DNA of 32,000 bases, from the NCBI GenBank assembly GCA_030606485.1, contig JAUWGH010000002.1, positions 30,001 through 62,000 of the forward strand, read 5' to 3'. The DNA comes from Promethearchaeota archaeon. Its GTDB lineage: Archaea; Asgardarchaeota; Lokiarchaeia; Sigyniarchaeales; SOKP01. The position numbers and the translations under genes are program-made. The first letter of the stretch is position 1; every line of letters starts with the position of its first letter. The notes under the pieces were generated by a model. It did not search any database. It had not been told where the DNA came from and saw nothing but the letters and a program-made list of their open reading frames with translations. Shown here one piece after another: positions 10,870-32,000 of this stretch.

Positions 10870-11094
10870 TTAAGGCACAGACTCTACATATTTAACTTCA
10901 GGAATTACTTGTTTTAATGCTCTTTCAATCCCAAGTTTGAGAGTCATTTGCGAGTAAGCACATCCACGACAATGGCCTTGTAATCTTACTTTTACAACCC
11001 CATCATCCGTCACTTCAACAAGTTCAACATCGCCACCATCCATTTGCAACTGCGGCCTTATTTTTTCAATTATTTCATTTACTTTTTCTTTCAT
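10870..11094 (-). CDS. nifU: NifU/Nfu-type Fe-S cluster carrier
   Basis: IRPQLQMDGGDVELV...LQGHCRGC...TLKLGIE; GAGGT Shine-Dalgarno-like site upstream. Confidence 0.9.
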   Translation of the reverse strand: MKEKVNEIIEKIRPQLQMDGGDVELVEVTDDGVVKVRLQGHCRGCAYSQMTLKLGIERALKQVIPEVKYVESVP

Positions 11095-11347
11095 TTCAAA
11101 TTACCTCAGTTTTTTATAATAATTGATGTATTCAATTTAATAGCTATGGAATTAGCTTATTATCTGTTCTTATTATAAAATATAAGATATGTATTGTAAA
11201 TAAGTTTAAAGAATTTTATCAGTTAAAACTTTACCTTATAAAAAATAAAGTGAAAAAACTATTTTCCAAAACTTTCGTTTTGAAATAACCTTTTTCATAA
11301 ATATTGTTTAAATTTGGTGAAGAAGAAAAGCAGAAAAACATCTAATT

Positions 11348-22150: not shown

Positions 22151-23347
22151 TCATAGAATTGTTTGAATTCTAATTTGTTTTTGAGAATTTGTTTCGATAG
22201 TAGAAATTAAAGTATCGATTTCTTGCCTTGTTTTATATTCAATTATTTTTTCTTCTCCTGATAACCATGCATTAAAACCTGTCATATGCTTATAGGTCTC
22301 GAATAGACCTCGTTGAATACCTGAGTTTTCTATTGTAACACCATTAAGAATATCTTTGAGGTTATTTTTTATTCGTAATTTATAAATAAATGTGCTTGAA
22401 GTAGTATCTTTATCAGTATCAATAGAAATTATATTTATACCTTTTTTTATTGCAGGAGGGGCTTCAAATAATTCTAAACCCTCTTCTCTTTCTCTAAATA
22501 AACCAGTTTCGATTATATTTTGTTGTTTTTGAGGTTTAATAATAATTGGGATTTCAAAAGAGATTATATCTCCCCCGACTTCTCTTTTTCTATTTCCTAT
22601 TATTTCTAGAAACCATTTAGAATAATCCCCAAATTTAACTCCCCACTGATCTTTTTCTTGAGGTTCCCAAAGATATTCATGACTTGGTTCAGCGTGATTT
22701 GGAACTTTTATCAATAGAAAACCGTGATCTGTTTTGGATGTTTTTGCTCCACCAGCAATCACTGGTGGTAATTCCTCAGTACTTCCACATTGTTCACCAA
22801 AAGGTTCACAAATACATATTAAATTAGCCTTTTGTTTTAATCTTATTTGAAATAATGCTAAATTGCTTGTTTTATAATCAATCTTTATAGCCTCGCCTGG
22901 TTTAAAAATATCTTTAGAAATTTCAAGATCTATCCCAGACATAATTAATTTAATTGGAGTGGGAATTCTATTTTGATATATACTCTCTTTTGGAAAAATT
23001 TTAATGTGATTTTCTTTAAAAATTTCTATTTCTTTTTGAGAATTAAGAGGACTTTTAATTCTTAAAGTCATTTTAACTAAGTAGTGAATTTTTCTTGCCG
23101 GAATTGTTGGAACTACGTTGGGATTAATAAGTTGTGTTCTTTTTCTTATGTATTCACCAGGTTCAAAAGTACCTTGATTGAATATTTCAGATTTGGTTAT
23201 AATTAAGTCTCTTTTACATGGGTTTTTAGAAATTAATTTTAAACCTCCCCACAAGATCTCAGTTGTTTCTTCAAATGTAGTTTTAGTAATTACATTAAGA
23301 TAATCTCCCAAAATGATACTATCATCATTATCAAGACTTAATTTCAT
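22151..23347 (-). CDS. Arrestin/Vps26/SpoOM-fold protein with extra C-terminal domain
   Basis: N-lobe FEPGEY...VVPTI...IHYLVK and C-lobe LEISKDIFKPGEAIKI follow arrestin-fold patterns. Confidence 0.6.
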   Translation of the reverse strand: MKLSLDNDDSIILGDYLNVITKTTFEETTEILWGGLKLISKNPCKRDLIITKSEIFNQGTFEPGEYIRKRTQLINPNVVPTIPARKIHYLVKMTLRIKSPLNSQKEIEIFKENHIKIFPKESIYQNRIPTPIKLIMSGIDLEISKDIFKPGEAIKIDYKTSNLALFQIRLKQKANLICICEPFGEQCGSTEELPPVIAGGAKTSKTDHGFLLIKVPNHAEPSHEYLWEPQEKDQWGVKFGDYSKWFLEIIGNRKREVGGDIISFEIPIIIKPQKQQNIIETGLFREREEGLELFEAPPAIKKGINIISIDTDKDTTSSTFIYKLRIKNNLKDILNGVTIENSGIQRGLFETYKHMTGFNAWLSGEEKIIEYKTRQEIDTLISTIETNSQKQIRIQTIL

Positions 23348-23374
23348 TTTTATCGTTTGATTGTTTTAAAAATA

Positions 23375-24286
23375 TTATTCAGAATGAATAGAAACAATTA
23401 TGTCAGAAAATAATTTCATATCTTTTAACAATACACGAATCTTCTCAGAAGATTCAGGATCCAATTCCCCTTCCGATTTCATTATTAAAACAGCTAATAT
23501 GTATTTAAAAATATACAGTTGAAGTTCTTTACCTTCTTCTGAATTTCCTTTAAACTCTGCAGAATCAGATAAAAAAACATTCTCTCTAATTACATTACAG
23601 GAACTGATAAAATCTCTTAAATCTGCCCTTAATGATAGTCCACTTGAAACTCCTTGAACATTATGAACTAATACATTTCCTGATATATCGGAAATAATAA
23701 TTCTCGCATTTATCTCCTGTAAGTGCTTTTCCGCTTTTTCTATATGACCCTTTAATTCTGAATAAGATCCCATTAATATATCTCTGAAGATCTTTGTTAA
23801 ACTTTGTTGATCATAGATACTCGTTAGAAACGTTTCTGGCTTATAATCTTTAAATATATCTGAAAAAATCTCTCGAGCTTTTATTATATTCGTATCCAAG
23901 AGTTCCTTTTGATAGTCTTCAGTATCATATTTATGATAAAACAGACAAATTTTTGGTTTCTGATAATTCTCTTTATAAAGTTTTATAATATCTTCAAAAT
24001 ACTTTTTTGATTTATCAAAAGAATTTGGATCGTGCAAATCAACCACGGGAATCAAAACATCTGTACCCATGAATATTTTCGGCTTATCAAGATATTCTTT
24101 GATGTATTGGTCTTGGCCTCCAAAATCAAAAATTGATATTTCTAATCCTAAAAAAGGATGCCTTCTTGTTTCATAGAGTATCGTTGGAGATAATCCTTTT
24201 GTTTCTTCGGGTGTTTTTTCCGCGAATATTACTGAATATAAGGAAGTTTTACCACAACCAGAAAGGCCTATTAAACTAATTTTCAT
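23375..24286 (-). CDS. Rag/Gtr-like small GTPase with C-terminal roadblock/longin-like domain
   Basis: G1 GLSGCGKT, G2 PT, G3 DFGGQ, G4 HKYD, G5 TSIYD (Rag-type H-K-x-D and TSI-Y/W-D). C-terminal IIISDISGNVLV is a roadblock-like start. Confidence 0.85.
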   Translation of the reverse strand: MKISLIGLSGCGKTSLYSVIFAEKTPEETKGLSPTILYETRRHPFLGLEISIFDFGGQDQYIKEYLDKPKIFMGTDVLIPVVDLHDPNSFDKSKKYFEDIIKLYKENYQKPKICLFYHKYDTEDYQKELLDTNIIKAREIFSDIFKDYKPETFLTSIYDQQSLTKIFRDILMGSYSELKGHIEKAEKHLQEINARIIISDISGNVLVHNVQGVSSGLSLRADLRDFISSCNVIRENVFLSDSAEFKGNSEEGKELQLYIFKYILAVLIMKSEGELDPESSEKIRVLLKDMKLFSDIIVSIHSE

Positions 24287-24364
24287 TTTTTTATATCTCG
24301 TTTATTCTTATTTAAATTTTTAATTTGATTTTATAAAAATTTTGTTGAAAAATTGTTTTATCTA

Positions 24365-25858
24365 TTATTTTGATTTTTTTTCTTTTGGTTTCAGAGAGTA
24401 TTTCTTAAAAAAGAGTTTTCTATGTGAATCAGAAATATCTATAATTATTTCTCCAAGAACATGTTTTCCATCTTTAATTTCTAATGGATAATTAATCTGA
24501 ATAGATTCAAAAGGAAAAATTTCTTTTATTGTTGTACTCCAAGGTCGTTTTTCGAATAGTTCTTCCACAATAGCAACCCTAATTTGTAAATTTTCAAGAA
24601 GATATCCAATAACATTTTCTATTGTAATTGTAGTAGCCGTTTGACTTTCATTCAGTTTTTGAGTAACCCTTAATATTTTTCTTGTTCCAAACGGCGTTGC
24701 GACCTCAGCTTCCTCTTTCAATTCTGGTCTTGGTTTAAATGGTTCTTCTCTATCTATGTCTTTAACTATAAAAACCTTCCTTTTAAGAACCGTATATTGA
24801 GATACTTTCTTTAATCTTGCTAGGAACAAGACAGAATTTAAATTTTCCACTGAAAATGGTTCAGAAAGTAAATATCCCTTTTTTATAGCGTCCTCTATAA
24901 TTTCTACTCCTATACCTGATCGTGCTAAAACTGTGTTTTTCATCGGTCCACTTCCAACAGAACCCACCGAGATATCAGCATTTTCAGCAGCTAAATCTGT
25001 GCAAAAATTGCAACTTGATGATTTAAATTTATCTAATTCCTTTATTTTATAGGATTTTACTTCTGTATCTCCTTTATAAAGATAAAATCTTCCTTTATTG
25101 ATATCCATTTTTGTTATTTCCGCTAAATTAATTCCCTCCTTCTCAAAAAATGGTAATAATGCTTCATGTGAAAATGAATCCATACAAAATAATCCAATTT
25201 TAAAAACATGTGCTCTCATAAAATATTTTAACATTCCAAGTGGACTACTTTCCATTTTAAACACAGCATCTATGTTGCAAGGAGTTCCTACAAATGCGAT
25301 AGAGCCCATGTCATTTCTAATCCCGTCCATTAAAGAATCAACTGTTTGTGAATGGCTATAAATAGAACCAGCAGCTTCGATAGCTTCTTCTTTAGTAGTA
25401 ATAAGTTGAGGCAACGGAACCCATGGTTTATTTGGATTTTTTTTAGTAACAACTGCTCCGTCAATCAAATTTTCATCAAATAAATAACACAATAAGCTCG
25501 TAACGGTTCCTCCGTCCTGACCACCAATAACTTCAGGAATTCCACTTTTCGTAACATAACCTGTTTTAAAAAGACCAACAAGTTGTTCGGGATTAGTAAT
25601 AGTCCTCGGACATTGATTATAACAAATTCCACACCCAGAACATTGACCGACTAATCGTGGTTCATCATAAATTGGATCCCATTCAAGAGCACTGCAAATC
25701 GCTGCACAAGTGCCACAATGAGTGCAAACACCTGTTCTTATAACTTCCTTTACTAATTTTCCAAATGAATCTTTTTTCCCTTCTAATTTCCTTCTTATAT
25801 ATTCAAAAGAATGTTCATACTTAGATTCAGATTTTACTTTATTTATTTCTTCACTCAC
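24365..25858 (-). CDS. FrhB/FdhB-family (F420-binding) protein with N-terminal 2x[4Fe-4S] and a C-terminal extension
   Basis: CTHCGTC...CSGCGICYNQCP, QDGGTVT, VGTPC, GLFCMDSF, CNFCTD...DISVG; about 140 extra C-terminal residues. Confidence 0.88.
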   Translation of the reverse strand: MSEEINKVKSESKYEHSFEYIRRKLEGKKDSFGKLVKEVIRTGVCTHCGTCAAICSALEWDPIYDEPRLVGQCSGCGICYNQCPRTITNPEQLVGLFKTGYVTKSGIPEVIGGQDGGTVTSLLCYLFDENLIDGAVVTKKNPNKPWVPLPQLITTKEEAIEAAGSIYSHSQTVDSLMDGIRNDMGSIAFVGTPCNIDAVFKMESSPLGMLKYFMRAHVFKIGLFCMDSFSHEALLPFFEKEGINLAEITKMDINKGRFYLYKGDTEVKSYKIKELDKFKSSSCNFCTDLAAENADISVGSVGSGPMKNTVLARSGIGVEIIEDAIKKGYLLSEPFSVENLNSVLFLARLKKVSQYTVLKRKVFIVKDIDREEPFKPRPELKEEAEVATPFGTRKILRVTQKLNESQTATTITIENVIGYLLENLQIRVAIVEELFEKRPWSTTIKEIFPFESIQINYPLEIKDGKHVLGEIIIDISDSHRKLFFKKYSLKPKEKKSK

Positions 25859-26076
25859 TCTATAAAACCTCTATTTACACAGAGATTTGGTTATAATTAC
25901 TTTATAAAAAACTTAATCCTTAAAAAAAATTATTAAAATTAAATAGTAATTTAATTTTTAAAGAAAGACATCAAGTAAAAACAGATAAGTTATTGATTAT
26001 TTTGTTTATCTTGCTTCAATTTTTTTATCATTTTAGTAGTTAAGAGCCGAACATTTCAATGATAATCTCCTATACA

Positions 26077-26432
26077 TTATAAAAGATGCTTAAGAATTTT
26101 TTCATCACCAATTTCTCCCAAATGTTTTACCGCCTTTTTTTAATATTTGCTCTATTACTTGAATTGAAATAATTACTTAATAGTTCTATTATCTGTCTTT
26201 TGCAAATCTTGTTCTTATTGTTAAATTTCTTTAGGAATGTAATGCATTTTTTTAAATATATTTTTGGATTTGAAAATTCTTTTTTGATTTTTTATTAGTT
26301 TTCGAAATTATTATTAAAGAAGTTATCAATCTCGAAAGTAATCTCATACAAATATTTGGAGAATCGGAAATAATAACCGAAACCATATAACTTAAAATAA
26401 TTTCTTATGGTTTCTCGAAACAAATAATTATT
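26077..26432 (-). pseudogene. Possible degraded HEAT/PBS-repeat gene remnant
   Basis: One minus-strand frame runs about 100 codons, interrupted by TAA-TAA at 26292-26297. Adding one A to the A7 run (T7 at 26135-26141) gives KKKAVKHLGEIGDEKILKHLL, which is HEAT-like. Confidence 0.3.
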
Positions 26433-26636
26433 CTATTTTCCATTTCTGTCAGTATCGAATAATTTATATAATCATTAAGATAAAAGTTATTAAATAAGGT
26501 AATTTCAAAATGTAAAATTATTGAATCTGAAAATTAATATAAAAATTTTTTTTAATTTGGAGCATTTTAAATTTTTTTAATCTAATAGTATAAATTTTTA
26601 AATAAAAATCATAAAACGAGTTGATGTGAAAAAAAA

Positions 26637-28580
26637 TTGAGTAAAGAAATTTTACGCATTGGATATTATGCATGTCAATGAGGCTTGAATATTTCTGCGA
26701 AAGTTGATTGTTCTGAAGTTGTAGAGTATATGAAACAATTTGATAATGTTGAAACAAGTCGCATCTTTAGTTTTTTATGTACTGAACAAGGGCAGAAATT
26801 AATAATGGACGATATCAAAGAAAAAAAGATTAATCGGGTTGTAGCCGCAGCCTGAACTCCTAGAACTCATGAACCGATTTATAGAGAGTCTTTAGAACGG
26901 GCAGGACTTAGTAAATTTTATTTTCAAATGGTAAATATTAGAGAACAATGTTCTTGGATTACAGAAGACGAAGTTTCAGCAACCGATAAAGCAAAAATTT
27001 TAAGCAGAGCAGGTTATGAAAGGGCAAAAAGATTGGAAATAGTACCGACAAAAATTATTCCTATAAAAAAAGTTACTTTAGTAGTTGGTGGAGGAATCGC
27101 TGGATTAAATGCGGCATTAGACCTGGCAAATCAAGGAATAAAGGTATATTTGATAGAAAGTAAAACTACAATTGGGGGCAGAATGGCTCAGTTAGATCGA
27201 ACATTTCCAACTGATGATTGTTCTATATGAATTCTTGGTCCAAAAATGCTTGAAGCTAATCGAAATGAGAATATTGAAATTATTAGTTATAGTGAAGTTG
27301 ATAAAGTTGAAGGATATGTTGGAAATTATGAAGTTACGATAAAGAAAAAACCTAGATATGTTATAGAAGATTTGTGCAATGGTTGTGGAGATTGTACGCC
27401 AGTATGTCCAATTTACATACCGAATTATTGGCAAGAAAATTTAGGTTCAAGAAAATGTATCGATATATGTTTTGGGCAAGCTATTCCTTTTGTTTATGAT
27501 CTTGAAAAAGAATCTTGCGTTGAATGATATGCTTGTGTAGATGCTTGCGAGCCACATGCAATTGATTTGAGTCAAGAACCTGAATATGTCGAAATTGAAG
27601 TGGGTACAATAATAGTTGCAACGGGTTGGGATTTATATAATCCTACAGAATATGGATATGGAGAATATCAAAATGTTATAAACGAAATCCAGCTTGAAAG
27701 GATATTAGCACCAAATGGTCCAACAATGGGCCATGTAAAAAGACCATCAGATGGAAAAACACCTAAAGAAATATTATTTATTCAATGTGTTGGCTCGAGA
27801 GATACAGAAAACGCGTATTGTTCTGGTGTGTGTTGCATGATCGCTTTAAAAAATGCTAAATTACTTAAAGAAGAAATCCCTGATTGCCATATAACCATCT
27901 GCTACATTGATATAAGAGCATTTGAAAAGAACTTTGAAGAATACTATATGAGAACTCTTGATAAAGGTATTGACTTTATTCGAGGTAAAGTTCCAGAACT
28001 AATAGAGGATTCTGAAACCAAAAATCTCAAGGTAAGAGTATATTCTTCATTAACAGATGAGATAATAAAAATTGATGCAGACTTAGTAGTTTTATCAACT
28101 GCGGTATTACCATCTAAAGGAACGAGGCAAATAGCAGATGTTCTTGGAATTGATTATGATACAAATGGATACCTGACTGAACATCATTTTGGCTTAAGCC
28201 CTCAGGAAACTAAATATCTAGGAATTTATATTTGTGGTTTTGCGCAAGGACCAAAAAATATATCATACTCAGTTTCTCAAGCGAGAGCAGCCGCAAGTAA
28301 GGTTGCAGAATTGACATCCAAGGGAGAAGCGGAGCTTGAATTAATATGTGCGATTGTTGATGAAGAAAATTGTATTTCTTGTTATCGCTGCGAAAAAAAT
28401 TGTCCAAAGAATGCTATTATTGTACCTGAAGGAAAAATTGCTGAAGTCGATGAGATCAATTGTGACGGGTGTGGAATCTGTGCAACATGTTGTCCAACTC
28501 AAGCAATACAAATTAGATATTATACAGATGATCAAATATTTAATCAAGTCTTAGCACTAATAAAGGAAGTAAATGTATAA
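26637..28580 (+). CDS. hdrA: Heterodisulfide reductase subunit A, selenoprotein with 4 UGA-Sec codons (647 aa)
   Basis: TTG 26637 and track fragments 26928, 27246 and 27567 all lie in one frame. In-frame TGA at 26679 (CQUG), 26853 (AAUTPRTHE), 27228 (DDCSIUILGPKM) and 27525 (CVEUYACVDAC) each align to conserved HdrA cysteines. GGGIAG, NIREQCSW and QCVGSRD...CSGVCC are intact. Confidence 0.93.
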
Positions 28581-28592
28581 ACCGAAAAATTC

Positions 28593-28598
28593 AGGTGA
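28593..28598 (+). promoter_or_regulatory. Shine-Dalgarno site for vhuD
   Basis: AGGTGA, 5 nt upstream of ATG 28604. Confidence 0.6.
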
Positions 28599-28603
28599 GA
28601 TAT

Positions 28604-29071
28604 ATGAAAATGAATATCATTACGTTTGCTTGTAATAAATGAGGTTATAGTGCTGCAGATTTAGCTGGTGTTTCAAGATTGAAATATACTCCCAATGTAA
28701 AAATTATTCGTCTGCGATGTACAGGTAGAGTCGATATAAAACACCTAATTTATGCAATTAATAATGGTGCCGATGGAGTAATGGTTGTAGGATGACAAGA
28801 AAATCAATGTGAATTTAAAACTGGAAACTTTATTGCCGCAAAGCATGTCGAATTTGTTAAGAGAATTCTAGATAGGCGTGGTCTGGGAGGAGACCGAGTA
28901 AACATGTATAACTGCACTGGAGCTGAAGCTGTAAAATTTGTAAAATCGGTCGAAGATATGGTATATAAAATAGAAAAATTGGGATTGAATCCATTAAAAA
29001 CAGATCAAGCAGTTATTAAGGCAGAAATAAAAGAAGTAGATAAAAAATTAATAACCAAAACCCCCATTTGA
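28604..29071 (+). CDS. vhuD: MvhD/VhuD [2Fe-2S] subunit, selenoprotein with 2 UGA-Sec codons (155 aa)
   Basis: Manual translation MKMNIITFACNKUGYSAADLAG...IRLRCTGRVD...GADGVMVVGUQENQCEF...LGLNPLK. TGA at 28640 and 28793 replace the cysteines of CNWC and GC. It is absent from the ORF track. Confidence 0.92.
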
Positions 29072-29139
29072 ATGATCTTTAAAATGAAAGCTTAAAATTA
29101 AGAAATTTTATTGGGACGTCCCTGCAAGGGATATGGGGG
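29061..29139 (+). promoter_or_regulatory. Candidate SECIS / structured RNA element 3' of vhuD
   Basis: CCCCCAU (29061-67) pairs with AUGGGGG (29133-39). Inside it, AUGA (29084-87)-N12-AA-N13-GA (29115-16) surrounds a UAAAAUU/AAUUUUA stem. Confidence 0.5.
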
Positions 29140-29163
29140 CTTAAAAAAAATTTAATTAGGAAG

Positions 29164-30645
29164 GTGAATCTTATAGAAAATATTGATCTAAAAAATTTAA
29201 TGGAATCTACATATAACGCTATAAGTAATTTTCAAATTCGTGCGTTATATGAAGGAAAAGATGATATTTTAAAATTTGGAAGATTTAGTGAGGAAGATTT
29301 TAATTTTATTTTAGATTCACTTCTCGATGCTGAGACAGAAAGAAATTTAATATTAAAAAAATTAATAGGGTTTCCTCCGCTTACTCTTGAAGAAATAGTG
29401 GAGAAAGTGGAATATGATAAGAAAATTTTAGTACCAACAGTTGAATATTTAACCCAACAAGGTTATGTTGAAAAATTAATTGAAATAAAGACAGAAATTA
29501 AAAAAGTAAAAAATAAAGAGGGAAATTTTATAGATAAAGAAATAAAGATTGAAATTGTTCGATATCAAGCCAAATCCCTTGATAATTCTTTTCGAGAAAA
29601 TTATTTTGAGCCAATTTCTTTAGTATTTGAGAATAATTTTTGTTGTAATTGTGGTTATTGCTCATCAATATGCCCAGTTGGCTCAATAACAGTAACTGCA
29701 GATGATCTTAAAATTGATTCTGAGACTTGCATTAAATGTGGACTTTGTTTTTCTGTTTGCCCGAGGTCATTTCCATCTGAGCATATTTTTACAGTTTTAA
29801 ATAAATTAAATCCTAATTTGAAGAATGGTGCCGCAATTAATTATTATATAAATGCATATACTGCAAGTACAAAAAGTGATGAAATTAAAGAAGTATGCCA
29901 AGATGGTGGTATAGTAACAACATTATTATATTATTTACTGAAAGAAAAAGAAATTGATGCTGCGATAGCAGTAACCCATTCTGAAGATATTTGGAGACCA
30001 AAACCTATTATAATTGAGAATGTTGATGATCTTTATAAAACCGCTGGTACAAAATATGCTAATTCTCCAAGTTTAACAATTTTGAATGAAGCACAAAAAT
30101 TTGATAAAATTGCAGTCGTTGGAACTCCATGTATGATGTTAGCACTCAAAAAAGGAAGTGTTTATCCAATTGGAACATCTTTTTTTAATAATATTAAATA
30201 TACTATTGGTTTATTCTGCATGGAATCATTCAGCTATGATAATGTTATCAATATAAGCACTGAAATTTTTAATAAGAAATTAGAGAACATTTTAAAAATG
30301 GACATTAGTGGAGGAAAATTTATTGTTAAAGATAAAAATGGAGAAGAAGCCAAAGTTCCATTAAAAGAAGTAACTTCCTTAGCAAGAGATGTATGCCATT
30401 ATTGTAGTGATTTAACGTCCGAATTTGCAGATATTTCAGTAGGTTCAATAGGCTCAAGTGCAGGTTGGTCTTCAGTTATTACAAGAACAAAAGTTGGAAA
30501 TGATTTATTTAATAAATTGATAAATGGCAATTTAGTAGAAGTTAAGGATTTAGCTGAAGTAAAACCTGGATTCGGTTTGGTTAAGAAAATTTCAGGAATT
30601 AAAAATTCAAAATGCAAAAAAATTGAATTCAATGTAAAAAAATAA
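29164..30645 (+). CDS. FrhB/FdhB-family protein with N-terminal helical/wHTH domain and 2x[4Fe-4S]
   Basis: GTG start after AGGAAG. CCNCGYCSSICP...CIKCGLCFSVCP, QDGGIVT, VGTPC, GLFCMESF, CHYCSD...DISVG. Confidence 0.88.
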   Translation: MNLIENIDLKNLMESTYNAISNFQIRALYEGKDDILKFGRFSEEDFNFILDSLLDAETERNLILKKLIGFPPLTLEEIVEKVEYDKKILVPTVEYLTQQGYVEKLIEIKTEIKKVKNKEGNFIDKEIKIEIVRYQAKSLDNSFRENYFEPISLVFENNFCCNCGYCSSICPVGSITVTADDLKIDSETCIKCGLCFSVCPRSFPSEHIFTVLNKLNPNLKNGAAINYYINAYTASTKSDEIKEVCQDGGIVTTLLYYLLKEKEIDAAIAVTHSEDIWRPKPIIIENVDDLYKTAGTKYANSPSLTILNEAQKFDKIAVVGTPCMMLALKKGSVYPIGTSFFNNIKYTIGLFCMESFSYDNVINISTEIFNKKLENILKMDISGGKFIVKDKNGEEAKVPLKEVTSLARDVCHYCSDLTSEFADISVGSIGSSAGWSSVITRTKVGNDLFNKLINGNLVEVKDLAEVKPGFGLVKKISGIKNSKCKKIEFNVKK

Positions 30646-30662
30646 TAAAATTTTGTTAAAAA

Positions 30663-31775
30663 ATGAGTCAAGATAAACGAATAAAAAATTTTAAAGATTT
30701 AATTAACGAAGTTCATGATAAAGGTATTTGTCAATTATGTGGTGGATGTGTAAGTTTTTGTAGTTCTGCTGATTATAGGATTATTGATTTTATTAAACCA
30801 GATTTGCCACCACAATTTGTAAATGAAAAAGAATGCTTAGAGTGCGGAATATGTTATCATATTTGTCCACAAACTAAAGTACTAGAAAATAATTTAAATA
30901 TTCAATATAATTATATCAAACCACTTGGCAATTATAAAGAGATATATTCATTTCAAGCATTAGATAAAGATCTCTTAAAAAATGGAACTGATGGTGGAGT
31001 AATATCTGCTATATTATTGTATTTATTGGAACATAATTTAATTGATGGAGCAATCGTTTCAAAAAAGTTGGGACCATTTGCGAGAGATTCAATGGTTGCA
31101 AAATCTAAAAATGATTTAATTTTAGCTGCAGGTTCTCATTTTGATATTTCTTCACAAGTAACAGAAATTGCTAATTTTAGTACCTATAGTCCAACAATTA
31201 TGGCATTAAATAGATATAAATTTAAAAAGCTAGCTGTTATAGGAACTCCTTGTCAAATTTATACGATAAGATGTATGCAAGAAATGGGGGTTACCCCCTC
31301 TCAAAATATAAAATATCTACTTGGATTATTTTGTTATGGAAATTTTACAATGGGTAAAGATAAAAAAGAGAAATTTGAAACTCAATTTAATTTAAAAATT
31401 GAAGAGATTGAGAAATTAAATATTAAGGAAGATATGTTAATAAAATTAAAAGGAAGTGAAGTTATTCAGCATATATCGTTTAGTGAATTATCAGATTATA
31501 TACGTTCCGCTTGTAATGCATGTAATGATTTTACTAATATTTATGCAGATATTTCATTTGGTGGGTTATCATCACCTGAAAAATATACAACAACTATACC
31601 TAGAACCAAACTTGGAATAAATATTGTTAAATCCGCTTTAAATGAGGGATATATAAAAGTTTTATCGGATTTAGAAGGAAAAAGAGATAAAATGTTAGAA
31701 AAATTAATTCAGTTTTCAAAATATAAAGAAGATAGATATAATTTATCGCAAAAAAATTTAGGAGTTAAATTTTAA
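30663..31775 (+). CDS. FrhB/FdhB-family protein with 2x[4Fe-4S]
   Basis: CQLCGGCVSFC...CLECGICYHICP, DGGVIS, IGTPCQ, GLFCYGNF, CNACND...DISFG. Confidence 0.88.
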   Translation: MSQDKRIKNFKDLINEVHDKGICQLCGGCVSFCSSADYRIIDFIKPDLPPQFVNEKECLECGICYHICPQTKVLENNLNIQYNYIKPLGNYKEIYSFQALDKDLLKNGTDGGVISAILLYLLEHNLIDGAIVSKKLGPFARDSMVAKSKNDLILAAGSHFDISSQVTEIANFSTYSPTIMALNRYKFKKLAVIGTPCQIYTIRCMQEMGVTPSQNIKYLLGLFCYGNFTMGKDKKEKFETQFNLKIEEIEKLNIKEDMLIKLKGSEVIQHISFSELSDYIRSACNACNDFTNIYADISFGGLSSPEKYTTTIPRTKLGINIVKSALNEGYIKVLSDLEGKRDKMLEKLIQFSKYKEDRYNLSQKNLGVKF

Positions 31776-31800
31776 AATTACTCAAATTTCTAACAATTCT

Positions 31801-32000
31801 ATGGTTATAAAAGGAAAATTAAGAGAATATCTTAATAATTGCTATCAATGTGCTATGTGTAGTGGCATTTGCCAAATGGGAAGAATACAAAAATACACTC
31901 CTAGTAGGATAATACAACTGATCATTGAAGGTTTTGAAGATCGAATTGTTGAAAGTGGAATGCTTTGGGATTGCTTAACTTGCAATTCTTGCCTTGAAAA
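31801..32000 (+). CDS. hdrC: HdrC-like Fe-S subunit or domain, 5' partial
   Basis: MVIKGKLREYLNNCYQCAMCSGIC...PSRII...LWDCLTCNSCLE; runs off the window, so a longer HdrD/HdrCB fusion cannot be excluded. Confidence 0.7.
   Translation, partial: MVIKGKLREYLNNCYQCAMCSGICQMGRIQKYTPSRIIQLIIEGFEDRIVESGMLWDCLTCNSCLE

Follow-up and report, generated by a model that had tools for sequence, protein, structure and literature searches.

The stretch of DNA analysed in this study (hereafter the window) comprises 32,000 nucleotides (nt) of contig JAUWGH010000002.1 from a Lokiarchaeia metagenome-assembled genome (GCA_030606485.1, here G000; 3.75 Mb in 13 contigs, 29% G+C). On its forward strand it was found to contain an hdrA gene, immediately followed by a vhuD gene and by a selenocysteine insertion sequence (SECIS). 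Six in-frame UGA codons predicted to encode selenocysteine (Sec) were present in this pair, four in hdrA and two in vhuD. The features of the locus are:

26637–28580, + strand: hdrA coding sequence with TTG start, 647 codons, TAA stop and four in-frame UGA (predicted Sec) codons
26679–26681, + strand: UGA codon 15 (Sec15) in a CxU motif of the N-terminal cluster domain
26853–26855, + strand: UGA codon 73 (Sec73) in an AAAU-TP motif of the N-terminal domain
27228–27230, + strand: UGA codon 198 (Sec198) in DCSIU, the canonical HdrA Sec position, aligned to X in 9sfi_A
27525–27527, + strand: UGA codon 297 (Sec297) within the inserted ferredoxin domain, where it takes the place of Cys number two in the second CxxCxxCxxxC motif
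28593–28598, + strand: Shine-Dalgarno-like AGGTGA, read from the sequence, 5 nt before the vhuD start codon
28604–29071, + strand: vhuD/mvhD (FlpD family) coding sequence (PF02662, E 1e-43; VhuD model NF045873, 165 bits)
28640–28642 and 28793–28795, + strand: in-frame UGA codons 13 and 64 of vhuD (two predicted Sec)
29054–29155, + strand: Loki-type (eukaryote-like) SECIS, the only one in the window, matched by covariance model R1
29061–29067/29133–29139, + strand: SECIS outer helix
29072–29075, + strand: SECIS AUGA core, directly after the vhuD stop codon
29077–29084/29106–29113, + strand: SECIS upper stem with two U.U pairs
29085–29105, + strand: enlarged SECIS apical region of about 21 nt, GAAAG followed by a possible mini-stem of 4 base pairs (bp)
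29115–29116, + strand: SECIS GA
29119–29131, + strand: small SECIS hairpin with a GCA loop

Read-through of TGA over 26637–28580 gave a single frame of 647 residues ending in TAA, with TGA as the only type of in-frame stop, and re-translation reproduced both the coordinates and the codon numbers given for it in an earlier note on this DNA. Under translation table 11 the frame is broken into four open reading frames with products of 56, 100, 93 and 337 amino acids, so that standard annotation would miscall the gene, as that note had anticipated. The strand opposite hdrA contained no open frame over the same interval and showed stops throughout.

The read-through product was matched over essentially its full length by two HdrA sequences of known structure (phmmer search against PDB sequences): 9sfi_A (E 1.3e-203, residues 7–641) and 5odc_A (E 2.1e-195, residues 6–643). 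In the alignment 5odc carries Cys at all four TGA sites (VCHCG, AACSP, DCSIC and CIECGLC), and the replacement of these residues by CQUG, AAUTP, DCSIU and CVEUYAC, as read earlier from the sequence alone, was shown to be exact. The third TGA (codon 198) lies opposite the X (Sec) of 9sfi, and Cys was found opposite codon 15 in both 5odc and 9sfi. The counterpart of Sec198 is Cys197 in M. wolfeii (numbering of PMC9012536) and Sec197 in M. maripaludis. Pfam recognised Pyr_redox_2/flavin adenine dinucleotide (FAD) and three Fer4 stretches, and the HdrA domain order (N-terminal, TrxR-like/FAD, inserted ferredoxin and C-terminal ferredoxin) was intact. Every conserved Cys column of HdrA is occupied by either Cys or Sec, including the N-terminal set, DCxxC, the two CxxCxxCxxxC pairs and Cx10CxxxCC; thus, C384/395/399/400 and both ferredoxin motif pairs are complete, with Sec at 15, 73, 198 and 297. 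The top NCBIfam model was HdrA2 (NF040770), matched over model positions 1–643 with 767 bits against a cut-off of 1100 bits. VhuD matched positions 649–773 of the same model with 126 bits.

Homologues were collected from 121 genomes of the order, searched in six frames, and 57 sequences, 30 of them orthologues, were aligned with TGA as U to compare the Sec columns. Among the matches listed, the orthologue group (66–70% identity) contained 3–5 in-frame TGAs per hdrA in nearly every genome, and the paralogue group (53–57% identity) contained 2–4. Genome G000 itself contains four Sec-type hdrA genes with 4, 3, 3 and 3 TGAs, the other three (C12:104342–106240, C10:156619–158547 and C8:215846–217786; L026, L027 and L029) having Sec at columns 15, 73 and 198. 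Four Sec residues are therefore ordinary for the Lokiarchaeia HdrA family, and the possibility raised in the earlier note that this number is unusual was not borne out. Annotation under table 11 would miscall as pseudogenes, or overlook, no fewer than four hdrA genes in G000, and probably their vhuD partners as well.

At the Sec columns the codons were TGA versus TGT/TGC in relatives. Columns 15, 73 and 198 were TGA in all 30 orthologues. Column 15 was also TGA in all Sec-type paralogues examined, and column 73 was Cys or Sec in paralogues. Column 48 was occupied by Cys in 18 orthologues and by Sec in the other 12. Column 297 was Sec in only 4 of the 30, namely the four genomes of the genus to which G000 belongs, and TGT/TGC in the remaining 26; the same four TGAs were thus present in three other assemblies of the genus. 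This, together with the three TGAs shared by all orthologues, excludes a chance origin of these codons.

TGA at column 297 was detected besides in G090, which belongs to a separate lineage (homologue labels L066 to L071 denote G090, G113, G109, G033, G111 and G039, respectively). Five-Sec orthologues were found to have their fifth Sec at 297 (G090), at 300 (G109, G033 and G111) or at 612 (G113), and a four-Sec paralogue (G039) has one at column 247. In a FastTree phylogeny the genus was sister to all other orthologues and G090 was nested elsewhere, which indicates that column 297 turned into Sec at least twice; Sec at column 300 appeared at three separate places in the same tree. When 400 genomes of the phylum were queried with the inserted ferredoxin domain alone, an in-frame TGA was present in 7 among the 150 matches listed, 3 of them outside the genus. 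Judged from these alignments, Sec within a classical ferredoxin motif is uncommon yet recurrent in the Lokiarchaeia HdrA family.

Among the four genomes with U297, pN/pS was 0.13–0.22 for codons 298–647, and the upstream segments gave similar values. Purifying selection after each TGA implies that translation must run through all four codons. Logan contigs of run X6, which derives from a separate study, contained all six TGAs of the operon and showed no mismatch there among the differences listed, and a contig of run X2 was identical across 27228–29160; contigs of runs X2 and X18 cover only parts of the stretch. The organism is represented in runs X1–X16, which come from cold-seep and marine-sediment samples. 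Contigs from an RNA library (X17) span codons 198 and 297 of hdrA as well as the two TGAs of vhuD, again with no mismatch there among the differences listed, and one of them crosses the hdrA/vhuD junction. Taken together, these results support that the hdrA gene is intact and a real selenoprotein gene rather than a pseudogene.

The vhuD gene starts 23 nt past the hdrA TAA, a gap too short for a SECIS, and its terminal UGA (29069–29071) abuts the AUGA core of the SECIS (29072–29075). The hdrA-vhuD arrangement was the same at all orthologous loci, and the hdrA stop was TAA or TAG in 31 out of 31 cases. Both the TAA/TAG stops of hdrA and the position of the vhuD UGA next to AUGA fit the minimal-distance rule of Mariotti et al. 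(PMC4989117).

Standard SECIS tools fail on Loki genes (Mariotti et al., PMC4989117), and a covariance model (R1) was built from 25 orthologous elements, none of them from the genus. This model gave one match in the window (37 bits, E 2e-5), the runner-up reaching 14 bits with filters off. The genome's three other Sec-hdrA/vhuD pairs were each followed by a match as well, with 48 (C12), 70 (C10) and 47 (C8) bits. Outside the genus, a lokiSECIS was found right after vhuD in 26 of 27 orthologous loci. These elements share AUGA, a 9-bp stem, an 11-nt loop with adenines first and G last, and then GA or AA; in addition, a small GNRA-like hairpin lies 3′ of the GA/AA, and a C-rich/G-rich outer helix surrounds all of it. 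The stem had 8–9 of its 9 pairs in 25 of 27 elements, the exceptions being L047 with a 12-nt loop and L052, which fits only via a U-G replacing the otherwise conserved A-U as the topmost stem pair. RNAalifold recovered the stem, with compensatory changes in 7 of 11 predicted pairs.

The SECIS of the genus keeps the outer helix, AUGA, GA and small hairpin, and thereby the published combination of AUGA/GA and location. It is best described, on comparison of the sequences, as a type-II-like variant with an enlarged apical region, which presumably still supports long-range recoding. The genus with this variant SECIS is also the one that gained the extra Sec297.

Further analysis of the genome showed the presence of the genes needed for Sec decoding, which the earlier note had left to be confirmed:

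C2:189902–190018: tRNA-Sec, anticodon tca, with an intron (47.1 bits, Rfam model RF01852 and ARAGORN in intron mode)
about 80 nt from tRNA-Sec: SepSecS (487 bits)
about 3 kb beyond tRNA-Sec: SelB (264 bits)
C2:188523–194265: Sec-decoding cluster of SepSecS, tRNA-Sec and SelB (L001, L008 and L013)
C1:19411–20202, about 10 kb upstream of the window: SelD, with an in-frame TGA of its own (Sec-containing)

The tRNA-Sec, SepSecS, SelD and SelB were all above cut-off, and PSTK was found as a candidate, a full-length PSTK-like gene whose best family was selen_PSTK (141 bits). The tRNA-Sec was not detected by ARAGORN without intron mode. TGA serves as an ordinary stop in other genes of the window, which excludes a reassigned code; read-through lengthened three of these genes by merely 2–19 codons. 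A second TGA-containing frame of the window (10917–11288) was considered as a selenoprotein and rejected, since it is of low complexity.

The locus thus very probably encodes an intact HdrA-type bifurcating flavoprotein with four UGA codons decoded as Sec, paired with a two-Sec VhuD and served by one shared SECIS. In the mechanism that we propose, hdrA and vhuD would most likely be read from one mRNA, and the single lokiSECIS starting at the vhuD stop would recode all six UGAs, which lie 0.28 to 2.4 kb upstream of it, by means of the tRNA-Sec, SelB, SepSecS, PSTK-like kinase and SelD of the genome. The UAA stop of hdrA would not be recodable by the SECIS, and the terminal UGA of vhuD is expected to act as a stop because it abuts the SECIS core.

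As to function, HdrA's N-terminal domain carries a [4Fe-4S] cluster (A3/HA3), and Cys197 of the partner subunit was described as a ligand of it in a crystal structure (PMC9012536). In 5odc numbering, the alignment places the candidate N-terminal cluster residues at Cys11, Cys13, Cys46 and Cys71. Sec15 and Sec73 would lie in this mobile N-terminal domain, Sec198 would correspond to the canonical Cys197/Sec197 site touching its cluster or the FAD, and Sec297, because it stands in a canonical CxxCxxCxxxC motif, would be a direct ligand of a [4Fe-4S] cluster that the inserted ferredoxin domain binds. The low-potential branch, leading from FAD to ferredoxin, would then hold all four Sec. Its potential, or the rate of electron transfer along it, might be tuned by selenolate ligation or by selenol chemistry, and we infer that selenium influences either the potential or the kinetics of this branch. 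The earlier assignment of U15, U73 and U198 to the N-terminal cluster is only partly documented: Cys197 is a named ligand (PMC9012536), and for Sec197 a relay has been put forward as an alternative (PMC13518236).

The homologue alignment showed no conserved spare Cys near position 297. Cys274 and Cys278 were considered as residues that might stand in for Sec297 and were rejected, because C274 occurs in many Cys297 homologues, C278 is missing in one member of the genus and L066 lacks both. Tentatively, and at somewhat less than an even chance, we propose that in Lokiarchaeia HdrA Sec has independently and repeatedly replaced Cys residues of ferredoxin motifs (297 twice, 300 three times, 247 and 612) where no conserved spare Cys is available, which would give Se-ligated [4Fe-4S] clusters. 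If so, selenium would be found along the whole low-potential branch of the HdrA described here, at the N-terminal cluster, the Cys/Sec198 contact and the inserted ferredoxin, and natural Cys/Sec pairs would be at hand to test selenolate tuning of cluster potential in flavin-based electron bifurcation.

Several observations weigh against the interpretation given above. The SECIS of the genus departs in all four genomes from the 9-bp stem and 11-nt loop of the other elements by its 21-nt apical region and two U.U mismatches, and its four copies are nearly identical, so that no covariation backs the variant fold. When folded as a single sequence, the vhuD 3′ region did not outperform shuffled sequence (minimum free energy, z −0.13 and −0.23), and Rfam detected neither a SECIS nor another family in the whole window (gathering thresholds) or in 26000–29400 (E ≤ 10); since folding and Rfam were uninformative, the SECIS of the window is recognised only by comparison with orthologues. 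The PSTK candidate, with its 141 bits, lies below the curated cut-off of 290 bits. The comparison of independent data was made on assembled contigs, in which minor variants may be missed, with ten further differences beyond those listed, and the X17 contigs, although from an RNA library, do not prove transcription. Finally, Sec15 and Sec73 are assigned as ligands by analogy, and Sec197 has been proposed to be a selenylsulfide relay instead of a cluster ligand (PMC13518236).

The last point leads to the best surviving alternative, which concerns the function of the residues and not the identity of the gene: Sec15, Sec73 and Sec198 may not, or not only, be Fe-S ligands and may instead be redox-active selenols that connect FAD with the clusters through selenylsulfide or diselenide relays, as extra 'catalytic' chalcogen centres. 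We consider this a real possibility, if on the whole an unlikely one. The presence of several Sec has already been taken to imply several catalytic Cys (PMC4989117), and a 2026 cryo-electron microscopy study of the M. maripaludis complex showed density that fits a Cys-Sec197 selenosulfur bond between A3 and FAD, with a redox relay proposed (PMC13518236). Besides, the five conserved Cys/Sec at 13, 15, 48, 73 and 198 exceed the four ligand positions, so that at least one should be free. However, the crystal structure names Cys197 of the partner subunit as a ligand of the N-terminal [4Fe-4S] cluster (PMC9012536), and Sec297, like the Sec found sporadically at 247, 300 and 612, lies in a textbook CxxCxxCxxxC ferredoxin motif, for which ligation is the sole known role.

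Much less probable is that codons 15, 73 and 198 are genuine Sec codons and that TGA 297 is a recent nonsense or leaky codon, giving mostly a truncated product of 296 residues or reflecting gene decay. The confinement of this TGA to a single genus of the orthologue set and one further lineage, the atypical SECIS of that genus and the uncertain efficiency of decoding four UGAs in succession would be in line with such a reading. Against it, four species-level genomes retain the TGA, codons 298–647 are as constrained as those upstream and contain neither frameshifts nor further stops, G090 acquired TGA at column 297 on its own, and adjacent ligand columns turned into TGA in other lineages. That the gene is a pseudogene, an assembly or sequencing artefact, or a gene in which TGA is read as a standard amino acid under code 4 or 25 has next to nothing to recommend it beyond the four breaks of the frame under table 11, since all the TGAs coincide precisely with conserved Cys columns and are kept in 30 orthologues and several independent assemblies, all segments are under purifying selection, TGA terminates other genes in the window, and a tRNA-Sec and Sec pathway are present.

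The reading as a multi-Sec HdrA-VhuD pair with a shared SECIS agrees closely with what has been described for Lokiarchaeum (PMC4989117). There, five possible Sec positions were reported for HdrA, of which a given protein uses up to four and never lacks the canonical site at about 200, and all Sec aligned to conserved Cys. The pairs HdrA.1–4/VhuD.1–4 likewise combine a multi-Sec HdrA with a two-Sec vhuD next to it on the same strand at a very short distance, and a single lokiSECIS after vhuD is shared by up to six UGAs over about 2 kb, the hdrA stop always being UAA or UAG. The tRNA-Sec with an intron is a further similarity. A survey from 2024 reported 1439 Asgard selenoproteins, including shared hdrA/frhD SECIS and minor type-II forms (PMC11227280). 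The earlier note had called the phenomenon 'not wholly new'; prior work indeed exists, and this was an understatement, as exactly such a multi-Sec HdrA-vhuD system was described in PMC4989117. The locus thus confirms a published type (2016, surveyed 2024) and is not a discovery of it.

Two differences from Lokiarchaeum were noted. The Sec sites of its HdrA are not cluster ligands save one, which lies in the last [4Fe-4S] motif with a spare Cys adjacent (PMC4989117), whereas the only Sec in a classical motif here replaces the second Cys of the second motif and has no conserved spare. The loop of its lokiSECIS was given as a 'very precise' 11 nt, compared to an apical region of about 21 nt here. 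As position 297 has no conserved spare Cys near it, it seems to lie outside the five positions reported in PMC4989117, and we infer that it is a sixth. The motif strings of the HdrA Sec sites were absent from the supplementary tables of PMC11227280, and a recurrent Sec at HdrA ferredoxin ligand columns was not found described in the literature consulted. On this basis, Sec297 at a canonical ferredoxin ligand lacking a conserved spare Cys and the SECIS with an enlarged apical region look like new details. The value of the locus lies in these ferredoxin-ligand Sec positions and the variant SECIS, not in the count of four Sec; the alternation of Cys and Sec at defined [4Fe-4S] ligands among close orthologues provides material for testing the effect of Se on potential and electron-transfer rate.

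Compared to methanogen proteins, HdrA of M. maripaludis (PDB 9sfi, from a super-assembly of Hdr, Vhu and Fwd; PMC13518236) is a full-length homologue with Sec at DCxxU and a two-Sec VhuD partner, but it contains one Sec, has Cys at the positions of 15, 73 and 297 and depends on an archaeal-type SECIS. It is also part of a complex of Hdr and hydrogenase in a methanogen, whereas the operon in the window includes FrhB-like genes but lacks a hydrogenase. HdrA of Methanothermococcus thermolithotrophicus (PDB 5odc) shows the same domain order and all cluster motifs, but Cys at all four positions. For Methanosarcina-type HdrA2, an HdrA-MvhD fusion, the model NF040770 is covered by HdrA and VhuD together, and the FrhB-like neighbours fit an F420-linked module; the two parts are fused there and encoded by two genes here, scoring 767 and 126 bits against the 1100-bit cut-off. 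HdrA2 is not known to be a selenoprotein.

HdrA's N-terminal domain and VhuD have Cys/Sec sets that look equivalent (C13/U15/C48/U73 and C10/U13/C39/U64). BLASTP gave no match between the two, and hhalign aligned the Cys/Sec columns, but with a probability of 0.5% and E 0.13, and homology is not claimed.

The genes surrounding the hdrA-vhuD pair in the window are:

29164–30645 and 30663–31775, + strand: FrhB/FdhB-like genes downstream of vhuD
after the FrhB-like genes, + strand: Fer4_8 ferredoxin-like gene, its end cut at 32000
24365–25858, − strand: third FrhB-like gene, in a divergent cluster (22151–25858)
23375–24286, − strand: Gtr1/RagA-family small GTPase (PF04670, E 4.5e-27)
22151–23347, − strand: protein of 398 amino acids with no Pfam match

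No hydrogenase genes were found in the part of the operon downstream of vhuD (29164–32000), and no HdrB was identified in a search confined to the 32-kb window. The FrhB-like neighbours, the lack of a hydrogenase and the best match to the HdrA2 model suggest that hdrA-vhuD and the FrhB-like genes may form an F420- or flavin-linked bifurcating module and not a methanogenic Hdr. The divergent frhB-like operon and the hdrA operon are separated by a very AT-rich spacer of 780 nt (25859–26636), in which neither an open reading frame nor an Rfam match was found and which presumably carries both promoters. Rag-like GTPases such as the one encoded in the divergent cluster are typical Asgard eukaryotic-signature proteins.

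In the whole genome, ARAGORN called introns in 25 of 38 tRNAs, some of them at non-canonical positions, compared to 15 tRNAs called without intron mode. One of these calls, a tRNA-Asn with an 822-nt intron (C5:99299–100204), is probably either spurious or contains an inserted element.

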